Shown: positions 5,190 through 13,261 of the stretch, in pieces
Position numbering within the stretch: the stretch's first letter is position 1
How the letters are laid out: each line of letters opens with the position of its first letter
Source: Gammaproteobacteria bacterium
Lineage (GTDB): Bacteria > Pseudomonadota > Gammaproteobacteria > CAJXQU01
DNA: 64,000 nt
Direction: 5' to 3'
NCBI GenBank assembly: GCA_965238175.1
Contig: CBDEGZ010000003.1
Span: 1,888,001 to 1,952,000, forward strand
The notes under the pieces: generated by a model
Told to the model about the DNA's origin: nothing
What the model saw: only the letters and a program-made list of their open reading frames with translations
Databases searched by the model: none
Translations under genes and position numbers: made by a program

Positions 5190-6415
5190 CAATCCCTCAA
5201 GGAGAGTTTGATGTCATTGTTATTGGAGCAGGACCTTCTGGTGCGGTAGCATCGGCTTTGTTAAATAAAAAAGGTTATCGAGTTTTAGTTTTAGAAAAAG
5301 AACACTTCCCCCGCTTTTCAATTGGTGAAAGCTTGTTGCCACAATGCATGGTTCATTTAGAAGAAGCAGGTATGTTGAATGCAGTCAAAAAAGCTGCTTT
5401 TCAGTTTAAAAATGGTGCGGCATTTTCTTGCGGGGATGAATATGATTTCTTTGATTTCAGGAAGAAATTTTCCGAAGGTTGGGGAACGACATTCCAGGTT
5501 CAGCGAGATCGTTTTGATAAAATACTTGCAGATGAAGCCGAAAAACAAGGTGTAGAGATTTATTATGGCCACTGTGTAACAGCTTTTGACTATGAATCAG
5601 AAGAAGTGAGGCTTTCTGTAGAAACTGATCAAAATGAGAGGTATGACATCAAGGCAAAATTTGCATTGGATGCTAGTGGTTTTGGACGAGTGCTACCGCG
5701 ACTTTTAGAACTAAATTTGCCATCAAACCTTGAGCATAGAACATCTGTTTTTACGCATGTAAAAGACAATATTACTGATAGTCGATATGACCGTAATAAA
5801 ATTCTTATTACAGTACATTCTAGTCATCAAAATATTTGGTATTGGTTAATTCCTTTTAGTAATGGAAGGGCATCTGTTGGTGTTGTTACGCCACAAAAAT
5901 TTCTTACTAGTATGGATGATTCTGAAAATAAATTAAAAGATCTTATCTCTCAGGGAGGCATGCTAGCTGATGTATTGAAAGATGCTGAGTTTGATACACC
6001 GGTTAGGGATATTGGTGGATACTCCTGCAAAGTGAAACAGTTGCACGGCGATGGATTTGCATTGTTAGGTAATGCTGGCGAGTTTCTTGACCCTGTGTTT
6101 TCATCAGGAGTTACCATCGCATTAAAATCAGCATCACTAGCAGCAAAAGTGGTTGACCAACACTTGACGGGAATGCAGCCGGACTGGGAGCAGGAATTTG
6201 CTAATCCTCTAAAACAAGGAGTGGACGCTTTCCGAGCTTTTGTTGAGGGATGGTATGATGGATCCTTTCAGGATGTTGTGTTTTCAAAGAAAAAGGATAA
6301 AAAAGTTAATCGTATGATTAGTTCTATTCTGGCAGGTTATGCTTGGGATCTTAATAATCCATATGTGAAAAATACAGATCGTTTAAATACTTTAGCTGAG
6401 TTTTGTCGCGAGTGA
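5186..6415 (+). CDS. FAD-dependent oxidoreductase / flavin-dependent halogenase-like protein
   Basis: GAGPSG, FPRFSIGESLLP, WYWLIPF (WxWxIP) and FLDPVFSSGV motifs. Confidence 0.8.
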   Translation: MTIPQGEFDVIVIGAGPSGAVASALLNKKGYRVLVLEKEHFPRFSIGESLLPQCMVHLEEAGMLNAVKKAAFQFKNGAAFSCGDEYDFFDFRKKFSEGWGTTFQVQRDRFDKILADEAEKQGVEIYYGHCVTAFDYESEEVRLSVETDQNERYDIKAKFALDASGFGRVLPRLLELNLPSNLEHRTSVFTHVKDNITDSRYDRNKILITVHSSHQNIWYWLIPFSNGRASVGVVTPQKFLTSMDDSENKLKDLISQGGMLADVLKDAEFDTPVRDIGGYSCKVKQLHGDGFALLGNAGEFLDPVFSSGVTIALKSASLAAKVVDQHLTGMQPDWEQEFANPLKQGVDAFRAFVEGWYDGSFQDVVFSKKKDKKVNRMISSILAGYAWDLNNPYVKNTDRLNTLAEFCRE

Positions 6416-6951
6416 TCAGAATAGCCCTTCTATTGATTATGTTTTACGTTAGTGGCTGTAGTTCATTAATACCACAGTTTTTTGAACCAGAAGAATTCAA
6501 ATTGTTACCTCCGGATCAAGGTCCTGAAGCGGTGCTTTTGAAACAAACTGTTACGATGGAAGCCCTGGGTGAACAACACCAGGTTCTATCCGTTGTTCGA
6601 TTGGAGCAAGAGCAAGTAATAATGGTTGCCCTTTTACCTACAGGACAACAACTATTATCTATTACTTATGATGGTGAAAAACTAACACAAGAAAACTATT
6701 CTCCGTTGGCGATTCCTGGAGAAGAAATACTCGCAATTATGCAGCTTGCATTATGGCCAGAGCCTTCAATTGAAGAGCATTACCCGGAGAGTGAAGGGTG
6801 GTTTTTAGAGTTTTCACCTGGCGAGAGAAAACTAAGAAGTGCCTCAAAAACATTGTTGAAGATTAACTATCAGGATGATGGTTTGATCATTGGAAATTAT
6901 CTACATAATTATAGGATAATTATTCATACGCTGGAGGAAAAAGTACTATGA
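6403..6951 (+). CDS. DUF3261-like lipoprotein
   Basis: Lipobox VSGC; QLALWP motif; positioned before the ketosynthase as in aryl polyene clusters. The start may be the GTG at 6412. Confidence 0.65.
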   Translation: MSRVIRIALLLIMFYVSGCSSLIPQFFEPEEFKLLPPDQGPEAVLLKQTVTMEALGEQHQVLSVVRLEQEQVIMVALLPTGQQLLSITYDGEKLTQENYSPLAIPGEEILAIMQLALWPEPSIEEHYPESEGWFLEFSPGERKLRSASKTLLKINYQDDGLIIGNYLHNYRIIIHTLEEKVL

Positions 6952-10570: not shown

Positions 10571-11335
10571 ATGAATAACAGTAAATTTTTAACATTATTT
10601 CTCACAGTTATTATGGCTATGCCTTTGGTGGCTTTTTCAGCTGACGATGAGAGGATAGATAGTTATATAGAATTATTGGCAAAATCCGGTATGGAAAAGC
10701 AAAAGCAAAAGATGGTTGAAAGCCTTCAACGTTCTGGCTTATCAGATCCTCGTTTATTTGATCAGATAGAGAATCATCTGTTAGAAAGTATAGAACTTAG
10801 CTCAAGCCAAATAGGCTCAAAAAGAAAATTAATAACGCATATGCTTTTGTCTCTTGGATACAGTGGTAATGAAAAATACCGTCCTACACTGACCCTATAC
10901 ACTAGTAATGATACTGTTAACGGAAGGTTTCGCAGGTATGCGAATAAAGGGTTAAAGTTAATGACGCGTTTCAGGCATTGGCATAAATTAATAGCTACTA
11001 GTGAGATCGGTGTTGAAGGTAAGAGTATTGAAATTGCTACATACATGAAAATGCTAAACACCGATGATGTCTACGTTCAACGTTGGGCTGCAAGGGCTAT
11101 CTTTGAAGATAGTCTAAAAGATCCTGATCTATTAGCTCTTGCGGCAGAAAAATTAGAAGAGGTCTATCTAGAAAATTATCTGGATGGACCTGCTCAAGAT
11201 ACGGCTGCGTGGTTTTGCAAAGCAATTGGCCTCAATGGAGGTTCAGAATATAATGATTTGTTGAGAAGGGTTGCAAAGGATAGCCCGCATAAAAAGTTAA
11301 AAAGGTATGCTTCTAAATATGTGAAGCAGATCTAA
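10571..11335 (+). CDS. Secreted alpha-helical hypothetical protein
   Basis: Shine-Dalgarno AAGGA, N-terminal signal peptide, 254 aa; no motif recognised. Confidence 0.6.
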   Translation: MNNSKFLTLFLTVIMAMPLVAFSADDERIDSYIELLAKSGMEKQKQKMVESLQRSGLSDPRLFDQIENHLLESIELSSSQIGSKRKLITHMLLSLGYSGNEKYRPTLTLYTSNDTVNGRFRRYANKGLKLMTRFRHWHKLIATSEIGVEGKSIEIATYMKMLNTDDVYVQRWAARAIFEDSLKDPDLLALAAEKLEEVYLENYLDGPAQDTAAWFCKAIGLNGGSEYNDLLRRVAKDSPHKKLKRYASKYVKQI

Positions 11336-11349
11336 GAAAAGTATTATGG

Positions 11350-11371
11350 CGTGACTCTCAAGTCACGTTTT
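11350..11371 (+). terminator. Putative intrinsic terminator
   Basis: CGTGACT-ctca-AGTCACG hairpin followed by TTTT just after the stop at 11335. Confidence 0.45.
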
Positions 11372-11388
11372 AGTCTCCATAAAATGGC

Positions 11389-11503
11389 TTGAAACTTGTG
11401 CGCTTTTCAAGGAATAGATACTAATCAGAATCTAGTTTTATCTCATAACTTATGAGATTTCAATGAATAGTCTATTCAACCCTAAAAAGTGCGAGAGTTT
11501 CAA
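11389..11503. repeat. About 115-bp imperfect palindromic (MITE-like) element
   Basis: Outer arms TTGAAACTTGTGCGCTTTT / AAAAGTGCGAGAGTTTCAA, inner GAATAGA/TCTATTC, central ATCTCATAA-c-TTATGAGAT. Confidence 0.55.
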
Positions 11504-11732
11504 AAGCATCATTATGATTCTACTTTTCAGAACGATTTCAAGTTTAAAGGCGATGACTTTGTCTAAATGTAATTCAGTAATAGAACCAAACGATGGGCTA
11601 ATTTTGGTAATGAATCCATACTAACTTTAGAAAGGTACAATTTTTTAAAACGGGATTATTTTTGAATAATAGTAAAAATTTTAAGAATGACATTTGGAGA
11701 AATAAGTTACAGTCATAGTGAATAGGTAATTA

Positions 11733-11760
11733 TTGCGTGGCATTTTTAAAACTGTATAAT
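11733..11760 (+). promoter_or_regulatory. Sigma70 promoter of the tRNA-Ser gene
   Basis: TTGCGT-16 nt-TATAAT, followed by a GC-rich discriminator, 10 nt upstream of the tRNA. Confidence 0.7.
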
Positions 11761-11770
11761 TGCCTCGCTT

Positions 11771-12088
11771 GGAGAGATGGCAGAGCGGTTGAATGCACTG
11801 GTCTTGTTCTAAATATATAATCGAGCCTTTATGTGGAAATGCATAAAGTGTAAGCAGTCAAATTCAGGGAAGCCTTAACAGTTAAGTTGATGGTAATCCT
11901 GAGCCAAGCTAACAAAAGTTAGAAGGTGCAGAGACTTGACGGCTGCTACCTAAATCGCATACGCGACATGGTAAAGAGAAAGTCCAGACCACAAACATAT
12001 TATGTATGGCAGCGAAAGCTGTAGATGGTAAGGAAAACCAGCAAGGGTGAATAGCCCTTCCAGGGTTCGAATCCCTGTCTCTCCGCCA
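11771..12088 (+). tRNA. tRNA-Ser(UGA), split gene: exon 1 11771-11805, exon 2 12033-12088
   Basis: Joined exons (91 nt) give acceptor stem GGAGAGA/TCTCTCC, discriminator G, CCA end, anticodon arm CTGGT-CT-TGA-AA-ACCAG, long variable arm AAGGG/CCCTT and T loop GTTCGAATC. Confidence 0.93.
11806..12032 (+). ncRNA. Group I self-splicing intron (IC3-like), 227 nt, no ORF
   Basis: Follows a U and ends in G. Internal guide GAG (11823-11825) pairs with exon CUU. Core AAATTCAGGGAA...AATCCTGAGCCAAGC...GAAGGTGCAGAGACT; P7 GACTT (11933-11937)/AAGTC (11980-11984); P9 GCAGC-GAAA-GCTGT. Confidence 0.92.
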
Positions 12089-12096
12089 ATATTATC

Positions 12097-12118
12097 AGGC
12101 CCCGATTCGGGGCTTTTT
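12097..12118 (+). terminator. Intrinsic terminator after the tRNA
   Basis: GCCCCG-att-CGGGGC followed by TTTTT. Confidence 0.8.
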
Positions 12119-12175
12119 GGTTTTTGGGCATATAAATTGCCTTTAATTCTGAATGGTTAGGAATAATTGTTAATT

Positions 12176-13261
12176 ATGAAAAGTAAGGTTTTAATTCTAC
12201 CAGGTGATGGAATTGGTCCTGAAATTGTCGACGAGGCTGTTAAAGTTCTCAACGTTTTATCTTCAGATTTTGGACTTGAAGTTGATCTTGAGTATGGGTT
12301 GATTGGTGGAGCAGCAATTGATGAGACTGGAAACCCTTTACCAGAAAGTTCTTTGCAACAAGCTCAAGCAGCAGATGCTGTTCTATTAGGTGCAGTAGGT
12401 GGGCCGAAGTGGGAAGCTCTGGATATTGCAATTAGACCTGAAAAAGGGTTGTTGAAAATTCGATCAGAACTGGAATTGTTTGCAAACTTACGACCAGCTT
12501 TAACCGCACCACAATTGGTCGAAGCATCTGCATTGCGATCAGAAGTGGTTTCCGGTTTAGATATTATGATTGTCAGAGAGTTAACGGGTGGTATATATTT
12601 TGGTCATCCACGCGGAGTCCGCGAGTTGAAAAATGGTGAAAAACAAGGGTTTAATACACTTATTTATAGTGAATCCGAGATTGAAAGAATAGGTCGTGTG
12701 GCATTTGAGGCTGCAATGAAAAGGGATCGTCGAGTCTGTTCTATTGATAAGGCTAATGTATTAGAGTCTACAGAACTATGGCGTGAGGTCATGATCGGAC
12801 TGGCTAAAGAGTATCCAGAGGTTGAGTTGACTCATATGTATGTCGATAATGCGGCAATGCAGTTAGTACGCGCTCCAAAACAATTCGATGTTATGGTGAC
12901 TACAAATATGTTTGGTGACATACTGTCTGATCTGGCATCTATGTTGACAGGCTCGATTGGAATGTTGCCTTCAGCTTCATTAGATAAAAATGCTAAGGGA
13001 ATGTATGAGCCCATTCATGGTTCTGCGCCTGATATTGCCGGACAGAATATTGCTAATCCATTGGCAACCATATTATCCGTTTCTATGATGCTTAGATATT
13101 CACTTGCTGAAGCGGAACAAGCTGACAGGGTAGAAAAAGCAGTAGACAACGTATTGACGGCTAACTATCGAACACCGGACATCTTTTCTGAAGGTATGAA
13201 GAAAGTTGGAACGGCAGAAATGGGAGATGCGGTTGTTACCGTGTTAAAAAGGTTAAGTTAA
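12176..13261 (+). CDS. leuB: 3-isopropylmalate dehydrogenase
   Basis: [34 protein letters not shown] and [12 protein letters not shown] motifs. Confidence 0.97.

Follow-up and report, generated by a model that had tools for sequence, protein, structure and literature searches.

A group I intron inside the anticodon of the sole tRNA-Ser(UGA) gene of a gammaproteobacterium

Can a bacterium leave two serine codons to a single tRNA gene which is interrupted inside its own anticodon, and where would the interrupting element come from? These questions are raised by a stretch of 64,000 nucleotides (nt) from a Gammaproteobacteria bacterium (assembly GCA_965238175.1, contig CBDEGZ010000003.1), which as a whole is called the window here. 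In the window a 227-nt insert splits a tRNA-Ser(UGA) gene (11771-12088, plus strand, like its parts and flanking signals described below) between the anticodon positions 34 and 35. We consider it very probable that this sole tRNA-Ser(UGA) gene is split by a group I ribozyme which lacks an open reading frame (ORF) and is spliced by means of an internal guide sequence, that the cell depends on it, and that the intron was gained from a pool of tRNA introns.

A serine tRNA gene interrupted inside its anticodon

With default settings ARAGORN detected no tRNA across the 64-kb window. When introns were allowed it called tRNA-Ser(tga) i(36,227), and the sequence minus 11806-12032 was returned as a 91-nt tRNA-Ser(TGA), which has a long variable arm and CUUGAAA as its anticodon loop. 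The 5' exon (11771-11805, 35 nt, last base U) contains the acceptor strand (11771-11777), the D arm, one strand of the anticodon stem (11798-11802) and the loop bases C32, U33 and U34. The 3' exon (12033-12088) continues with G35 and A36, the remaining anticodon arm, the long variable arm, the T arm (12061-12077), the second acceptor strand (12078-12084), a discriminator G and CCA (12086-12088). Between the two lies the intron (11806-12032, 227 nt, no ORF, last base G). Since G11806 and G12033 are identical the junction could be shifted by one base; the junction after U11805 was chosen because the group I rule demands a U before the intron and a G as its last base. The first-pass annotation of this DNA, which was made from the sequence alone, had given these same boundaries, had derived the loop CU-UGA-AA after excision and had named ARAGORN on the spliced sequence as a check; the calls agree on every point. 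The apparent intergenic gap of about 830 bp which it reported measures 831 bp between ORFs (11336-12166), and its expectation that standard annotators may overlook the tRNA describes what the default run did.

Is another tRNA available for the same codons? The genome's 38 ARAGORN tRNAs comprise Ser(gga) and Ser(gct), with no second Ser(tga) and no Ser(cga), and a second copy of exon 1 was not found elsewhere in the genome. The search for a further Ser(UGA) gene, likewise proposed in the first pass, thus leaves the interrupted gene as the sole reader of UCA and UCG. In five neighbouring housekeeping genes TCA or TCG account for 75 of 218 serine codons (34%). With neither a further Ser(UGA) nor a Ser(CGA) gene in the genome, decoding of UCA and UCG should depend on splicing, and the intron-bearing gene is probably essential.

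The identity of the insert was examined with the Rfam collection. RF00028 matches 11796-12007 with 64.5 bits (E 4.6e-14) over the full model (1-253), i.e. the covariance model which the first-pass annotation had suggested as a check finds the intron above its gathering score of 50. This is the only Rfam match in the window and the only RF00028 match in the 3.35-Mb genome. Furthermore, the window intron keeps 68 of the 71 columns which are conserved at ≥95% in 76 other members of the family described below. Two of the three departures are accounted for by the P4 pair A11866-U11900, which is G-C in 75 of the 76. This compensatory change argues for a ribozyme under selection in this lineage.

The folding was examined in an alignment of 13 pre-tRNA-Ser sequences (A2), in which a hand-written structure including P1 and the P3/P7 pseudoknot was counted. 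Of 975 cells 98.6% are paired, and 32 of 75 pairs are changed on both sides. None of 500 shuffled alignments reached any of five measures, and registers slid against each other pair at most 41%. Compensatory pairs are present in P2, P3, P4, P6/6a, P8, P9 and P9b, most of them in P2, P6a, P8 and P9b. Unaided, RNAalifold recovers P2, P3, P4, P5, P6, P8 and the GAAA-capped P9 hairpin, and the minimum free energy (MFE) fold of the window intron, with a z-score of -2.55, reproduces most helices.

In this structure the internal guide sequence UCGAG (11821-11825) pairs with both exons. GAG and the exon bases C32-U33-U34 form P1, in which U11805.G11823 is the wobble at the splice site (invariant in 13 of 13 Ser introns); UC and G35-A36 form P10 (G12033-C11822 and A12034-U11821). 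C11822 pairs also with the intron base G11806. P2 (11827-11848) is a hairpin of 9 bp with the GAAA loop L2 at 11836-11839; 7 of its 8 counted pairs are compensatory, and it is also contained in the MFE fold. P3 (11854-11859/11941-11946) is paired to 100% in the 13 sequences, with one compensatory pair. It is pseudoknotted with P7, whose 5' strand (11931-11937, consisting of G11931, the bulged A11932 and GACUU at 11933-11937) pairs with the 3' strand AAGUCC (11980-11985), the latter preceded by J8/7 (11974-11979). All six P7 pairs are standard in all 13 sequences and never vary, so covariation is silent here either way. P4 (11864-11869/11897-11902) is followed by P5 (11872-11873/11893-11894), which is extended by a hairpin at 11874-11892. 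P6 (11904-11905/11925-11926) and P6a (11909-11913/11918-11922) have one of two and five of five compensatory pairs, respectively. In P8 (11947-11950/11970-11973, inner stem 11955-11958/11963-11966) 5 of 7 counted pairs are compensatory. P9 (11988-11991/12026-12029) covaries and encloses P9a (11995-11998/12002-12005), a helix read by eye, and P9b (12009-12013/12018-12022, GAAA loop 12014-12017), which covaries as well. The omega G is at 12032 and is G in 13 of 13 aligned Ser introns.

The start of the intron, GUUC (11806-11809), can pair with GAGC (11823-11826). This pairing overlaps the guide and would be a competitor of P1; its bases do not vary among the 13 sequences. RNAalifold places this hairpin instead of P1, and the Ser set alone cannot separate the two registers. 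The GUUC/GAGC hairpin was not preferred; P1 with its U.G pair was, because the guide covaries with the anticodon loop across host tRNAs. As P1 and P10 are invariant among Ser introns, their support comes only from that comparison. The helices proposed in the first pass largely stand, namely P1 CUU/GAG with U.G, P2, P3, P7 GACUU/AAGUC and the GAAA-capped P9; one A-U pair assigned there to P3 is here assigned to P8. Also borne out is the absence of a homing endonuclease: no endonuclease ORF was found in the intron, for which 227 nt leave no room. P5 is a single hairpin without an extension of the P5abc type, and with 227 nt the intron is compact, an IC3-type architecture. According to PMC11835236 IC3 introns lack P5(a-d). 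We call the window intron IC3-like, a label taken from its architecture; Rfam covers all group I introns with one model. As to gene structure, 11806-12032 is confirmed as a functional-looking group I intron in tRNA-Ser(UGA), which would be removed by splicing.

Was the gene interrupted in the ancestor of this genus? The GTDB family, order and genus of the window coincide and hold 7 genomes, i.e. 6 congeners. In 6 of 6 congeners exon 1 (100% identical) directly abuts exon 2 (97-98%) as an uninterrupted tRNA-Ser(UGA). By BLAST in this order of one genus and 7 genomes the intron had no match outside the window, i.e. in 0 of 6 congeners. The intron would thus have been gained after the split from the six sequenced congeners. 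Downstream of the tRNA the gene order (terminator, leuB) is shared with the closest congener, at an identity of 84.6%.

The 5' side of the tRNA is a synteny break, with upstream sequence that differs in 6 of 6 congeners. The region 10571-11770, which has no counterpart beside the congeners' tRNA, comprises a 254-aa ORF without an NCBIfam match and a non-coding stretch of 435 bp. Neighbouring genes are fabG2, a ketoacyl-ACP synthase gene and the unassigned 254-aa ORF, then come leuB, asd and fimV/hubP; no integrase or phage gene adjoins the tRNA. The succession leuB-asd-fimV and the tmRNA tag of this genome look gammaproteobacterial. A possible -10 box TATAAT (11755-11760) may be read 10 nt 5' of the tRNA start, with a weak -35 element TTGCGT (11733-11738) at a spacer of 16. 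It was absent from the output of a promoter-consensus scan because the -35 element matches at only 3 of 6 positions. Downstream, a hairpin (12097-12115; 8-bp stem, 6 GC pairs) with a T run resembles an intrinsic terminator (12097-12125).

Related introns in other tRNA genes

Is the Ser(UGA) intron unique? One genome for each of 185,579 species was scanned with a pattern specific to Ser introns, made up of the end of exon 1, P1 and the start of P4. The scan yielded 13 stretches, of which 11 are real intron-bearing tRNA-Ser(UGA) genes. The named hosts are Achromobacter aloeverae, Bordetella sputigena, Bordetella bronchiseptica M2020-2, Allopusillimonas soli, Giesbergeria sinuosa and G. anulus; the others are metagenome-assembled genomes, two of Burkholderiaceae, two of Terracidiphilus and one of Acidobacteriaceae. 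The two remaining stretches were chance matches in coding DNA, and the candidates L153, L154, L156 and L162 were discarded as coding DNA without a tRNA. Viral contigs were scanned with a pattern independent of P1 (P7' plus the Ser 3' exon). Three of the 12 stretches obtained (L053, L131 and L124) are real Ser(UGA) introns, and the other nine lacked a tRNA or an intron core. L131 is an AT-rich intron of 208 nt on a 151-kb viral contig. L124, on a viral contig of 207 kb, is an intron of 667 nt (6080-6746) inside a tRNA array (Lys, Lys, Phe, Cys). It carries in its P1 loop a 143-aa ORF (6109-6540) with an HNH motif, the stop codon of which abuts the guide. In L053 (IMGVR_UViG_3300048865_000014) the pre-tRNA-Ser hardly differs from those of Bordetella and Achromobacter, and its neighbour is the same tRNA-Leu(taa) as in Allopusillimonas; L053 probably is bacterial chromosome beside a prophage and not phage DNA. 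A metagenome scan with a window-specific pattern found only the L124 contig again and no closer relative or donor. Thus, the Ser(UGA) intron does not stand alone: at least 14 other public sequences (11 bacterial, 3 labelled viral) have the same arrangement, and the rarity implied by the first-pass annotation was overstated.

How do these genomes appear to standard tools? In none of five checked intron-bearing genomes was an intronless Ser(UGA) gene with that anticodon arm found. The motif was absent in three, and the single 13-mer matches in the remaining two are not tRNAs. The GC-rich Ser(UGA) introns scored 28-35 bits against RF00028 (cut-off 50) in three of five genomes, and in the other two no match was obtained at E ≤0.001 (G007-G011: L160, L163, L155, L161, L167). 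In Giesbergeria sinuosa a further group I intron of 92 bits (L177, G007:C10:136949-137226) is located in a tRNA with the anticodon CAU. Two tRNA genes are thus interrupted in this genome, as the Ser(UGA) and the CAU intron coexist.

A scan of IMG/VR with a P7...P7' pattern returned at least 120 viral stretches (L033-L152). Among the 120 matches listed, 89 received an ARAGORN call of an intron-bearing tRNA (58 of the first 80 and 31 of the other 40) and 31 did not. The hosts among the matches listed are mostly Leu(taa), besides Arg(tct) at two insertion points, Thr, Ala, Asn, Lys and others, with Ser(tga) in L053 and L131; Thr(UGU) and Ala(UGC) are host tRNAs of the family in addition to Leu(UAA) and Arg(UCU). 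The correspondence between guide and anticodon loop was counted in the 71 of 89 calls which fit the U/G boundary rule, 18 being left out (Phe, Val, Thr(ggt), Pro, Arg(ccg), and some Lys and Leu calls). In 63 of these 71 listed viral tRNA introns the guide complements the anticodon loop; 8 have no 5-nt complement in the first 40 nt. By chance such a complement is estimated to occur in about 1 intron in 7. The guide is UUGAG opposite Leu CUU/AA in 41 listed viral introns, AGGAG opposite Arg CUU/CU in 7, GGGGG opposite Arg CCU/UC in 9, ACGAG opposite Thr CUU/GU in 2 and UCGAG opposite Ser CUU/GA in 2, with GCGAG in one Ala and UGGCA in one Asn intron.

In a blastn comparison with GenBank phages most matches were to the core which introns of phage protein genes share. 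By alignment, a tRNA-Leu(UAA) of LR756501, a 735-kb uncultured phage, has a homologous intron at the identical 34/35 site. A conjugative plasmid of Bradyrhizobium sp. ISRA435 (L189) contains an unannotated family intron of 204 nt in tRNA-Leu(UAA). These two cases agree with the first-pass view of a compact, ORF-less intron related to those at the 34/35 site of Leu(UAA). An unannotated family intron of 250 nt is located on a 1.26-Mb replicon of Tritonibacter mobilis F1926 (L188), in a tRNA which ARAGORN calls Ile(tat) and which reads more like Thr(UGU). In two cultured jumbo phages, Klebsiella phage Muenster (L184, MT708547, about 302,840-303,150) and Escherichia phage Turkey5 (L185, PQ471516), a CAU tRNA is interrupted just after the anticodon by an unannotated group I intron beside an annotated HNH endonuclease gene; ARAGORN misses or miscalls these tRNAs.

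We propose the following course for the window gene. The precursor would be transcribed as one RNA. The guide UCGAG would pair with CUU/GA of the anticodon loop, so that a U.G wobble marks the 5' splice site. An external guanosine would be bound by the folded core (P3 to P9, with the GAAA loops on P2 and P9b) and would attack after U11805. The freed 3' OH of the exon would attack after the terminal G12032, and the exons would be joined to the 91-nt tRNA. The cell would depend on this ribozyme, there being no other tRNA to read UCA or UCG. The source of the intron would be a pool of related introns in tRNA anticodon loops, mostly on phage-like contigs, which may move to another tRNA when the two guide bases opposite anticodon positions 35-36 are changed. 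Tentatively, and with a little less than even confidence, we go further: the window intron may be the one tip, on a chromosome, of a large and seemingly undescribed radiation of compact, IC3-like group I introns that inhabit the tRNA genes of phages. By a change of 2-5 bases in the guide these would move among anticodon loops with a splice-site U (Leu UAA, Ser UGA, Thr UGU, Arg UCU, Ala UGC and others), and one would recently have settled in an essential tRNA which a free-living bacterium encodes only once, and have become indispensable there.

Alternative explanations and the origin of the intron

Might the gene be dead, or the interruption not exist in the cell? A decaying insertion which no longer splices would leave the tRNA-Ser(UGA) gene without function, and indeed splicing of the window intron is deduced from its sequence; a search for sequencing runs which contain the stretch brought up no RNA run. 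Yet 34% of the serine codons in the neighbouring housekeeping genes need this one possible reader of UCA and UCG, the core is kept at all but three of the 71 columns with a compensatory change in P4, and both exons are intact and match their orthologues. A dead gene is therefore very improbable. We regard as extremely improbable that a phage-borne, intron-bearing tRNA-Ser was merged into the contig at the tRNA during assembly. The genome appears to be metagenome-derived with a low depth (about 7x), it includes a contig (C1) which looks foreign with a GC content of 55.8%, and synteny upstream of the tRNA is unlike that of all congeners. However, the exons are the host genus's own sequence, with exon 1 identical in 6 of 6 congeners and the leuB synteny kept downstream, and a chimera would need joints on both sides of the 35-nt exon 1. 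The GC content of the intron (40%) equals that of the genome. A Logan contig of 61.8 kb from a second assembler spans 11400-12500 with 0 differences and no alternative joint, and contigs of three runs of one sample, probably the source sample, reproduce the DNA. As the Logan contig was probably built from the same sample, and probably from the same reads, it is weak independent support. As to the small contigs of this assembly, C1 (L182, 11 kb) has 55.8% GC compared to 40% in the main contig, carries a duplicate tRNA-Leu(gag) and is likely foreign, and C2 (L181, 8.5 kb) resembles sugar-metabolism DNA of Vibrionaceae at 72-75%.

If the interrupted gene is real, from where was the intron received? 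A tree of 54 rows unites the 12 GC-rich Ser introns in a 100/100 clade. The window intron lies outside this clade, in an unresolved group together with Leu, Thr and Arg introns from phages. In a tree of 77 rows (198 columns; the tool flags long branches and unequal base composition) its sister is the Arg(UCU) intron L143 of a viral contig, with a support of 98/87 and 77% identity. On the latter tree the Ser label needs 4 changes, and all host labels need 20 against a minimum of 11. Since this exceeds the minimum, host switching appears to have been frequent within the family, a view which is well supported by these comparisons. The approximately unbiased (AU) test neither supports nor rejects one clade of all Ser introns (p 0.188 with 13 rows, p 0.07 with 15 rows), and it does not reject a clade of the window intron, L124 and L131 (p 0.285). 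The window exons have no foreign tract beside the junction, which is compatible with reverse splicing as well as with homing and minimal co-conversion. The first-pass annotation had suggested a move by reverse splicing between tRNAs which share a CUU 5' exon. Switching of this kind is visible across the family in tree and guides; as to the route, the HNH-bearing L124 makes homing at the DNA level an equal candidate. A move within this very lineage is not borne out, because introns adapted to Ser(UGA) already exist in viral contigs and other bacteria. There is nearly an even chance, in our estimate, that such a Ser(UGA)-adapted intron was received by DNA-level homing or recombination from a phage or bacterial tRNA-Ser(UGA) gene. 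Intron-bearing tRNA-Ser(UGA) genes are located on the large viral contigs of L131 and L124, the latter with its HNH-motif ORF in the P1 loop. Common to the window intron and L124 are a stretch that runs from P7' into P9, the final 14 bases and a rare C at 11929, and the AU test leaves the clade of these three standing. Against this, the free tree groups the window intron with no Ser intron, and the window intron has no endonuclease ORF. Moreover, up to the junction the window exons match the congeners, and those of L124 and L131 already deviate in the anticodon stem, within 5-8 nt of the insertion, so any co-conversion tract must have been very short. Somewhat improbable, in our judgement, is a retargeting to Ser(UGA) of an intron from another CUU-exon tRNA of the Arg(UCU) or Leu(UAA) type, the first-pass idea, e.g. 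if it was reverse-spliced into the tRNA and the product was reverse-transcribed and recombined, the two P10 bases of the guide being adapted. It is favoured by the Arg(UCU) sister, by the number of label changes, by guides which differ only at the bases pairing with positions 35-36 and by the absence of exon co-conversion. It has to cope with a clade of all 15 Ser introns which is not rejected at 0.05, with a tree of few columns, long branches and heterogeneous composition, and with an RF00028 scan in which the genome has no second intron as resident donor.

Several points weigh against a sole, guide-spliced and laterally gained tRNA-Ser(UGA) intron as we propose it. The assembly consists of 3 contigs and is 97.7% complete, and a second Ser(UGA) gene in the unassembled part is conceivable. 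The call of gain over loss leans on six intronless congeners without a species tree. P1, P10 and P7 are invariant across the Ser alignment, in which covariation is silent on them. For the IMG/VR contigs the label 'phage' is accepted as given, and L053 looks bacterial. Finally, the nearest sampled relative is only 77% identical.

Known tRNA introns and the meaning of the locus

How does the window intron relate to tRNA introns already known? The group I intron of cyanobacterial and plastid tRNA-Leu(UAA), reportedly described by Xu et al. and by Kuhsel et al. in 1990, is said to be the archetype of the IC3 class. Both it and the window intron are compact, lack an ORF and have no P5abc extension, and we presume that they are homologous. 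The Leu(UAA) introns of LR756501 and of the Bradyrhizobium plasmid align directly with the window intron. Unlike these Leu(UAA) introns, the window intron interrupts Ser(UGA) and has the guide UCGAG, one base apart from UUGAG, and unlike the archetype it resides in neither a cyanobacterium nor a plastid.

PMC13168695 describes the tRNA-Ile(CAU) intron of Azoarcus sp. BH72 as 205 nt long and robustly self-splicing without peripheral domains. It resembles the window intron in its small size, its position in a tRNA anticodon loop and its helix set; the window intron has GAAA loops on P2 and P9. These loops presumably dock as in Azoarcus. The host tRNA is another one, and the Azoarcus intron is inserted after the anticodon CAU, whereas that of the window is inside the anticodon. 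The CAU-type intron L177 of G. sinuosa differs from the window family in its P7/P3' sequence. For the tRNA-Arg(CCU) intron of Agrobacterium tumefaciens (Reinhold-Hurek and Shub, 1992, as cited in PMC4033280) the comparison is by description. It too is sporadic in a proteobacterial tRNA gene, which is taken as a sign of lateral transfer, and it occupies a different isoacceptor. Introns in phage protein genes (primase/helicase of Pseudoalteromonas phage RIO-1; DNA polymerase of pYD6-A and of Bacillus phage Bastille) share 72-81% of the P3-P7 core over 76-85 nt. Unlike the window intron they interrupt ORFs, often together with endonuclease genes, and have other P1/P2 and P8/P9 parts.

PMC4033280, PMC8450103, PMC5733544 and PMC3984707 name Leu(UAA), fMet, Ile(CAU) and Arg(CCU) as bacterial tRNA hosts of group I introns. 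In PMC5733544 'group I introns' of 22-49 nt are claimed in three other cyanobacterial tRNAs; in our judgement these inserts are too short for ribozymes. A review from 2014 (PMC3984707) places all phage introns to that date in protein-coding genes, despite the many phage tRNA genes. The full-text literature searched, which covers few subscription journals and no supplements, yielded no account of a group I intron in Ser(UGA), nor any of such introns in tRNA genes of phages. Apparently, the arrangement is a known kind of intron, the bacterial tRNA group I intron, in a newly described host tRNA, Ser(UGA).

What does this mean for the bacteria which carry such introns? A default tRNA finder is blind to the gene, and the GC-rich relatives are below the Rfam cut-off. 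Such genomes seem to have no decoder for UCA and UCG because both tools miss the intron-bearing gene, and an apparently missing decoder can mislead judgements on genome completeness and on the genetic code. If essential decoding relies on the ribozyme, this would be a natural case of an intron that can be lost only by precise deletion. For the family, Ser(UGA) is added to the bacterial tRNA hosts of group I introns, and phage tRNA genes would be a major reservoir, taking the phage labels at face value. The correspondence of guide and loop over Leu, Ser, Thr, Arg, Ala and Asn hosts constitutes a natural retargeting series, which makes the route to new sites, reverse splicing or homing, testable.

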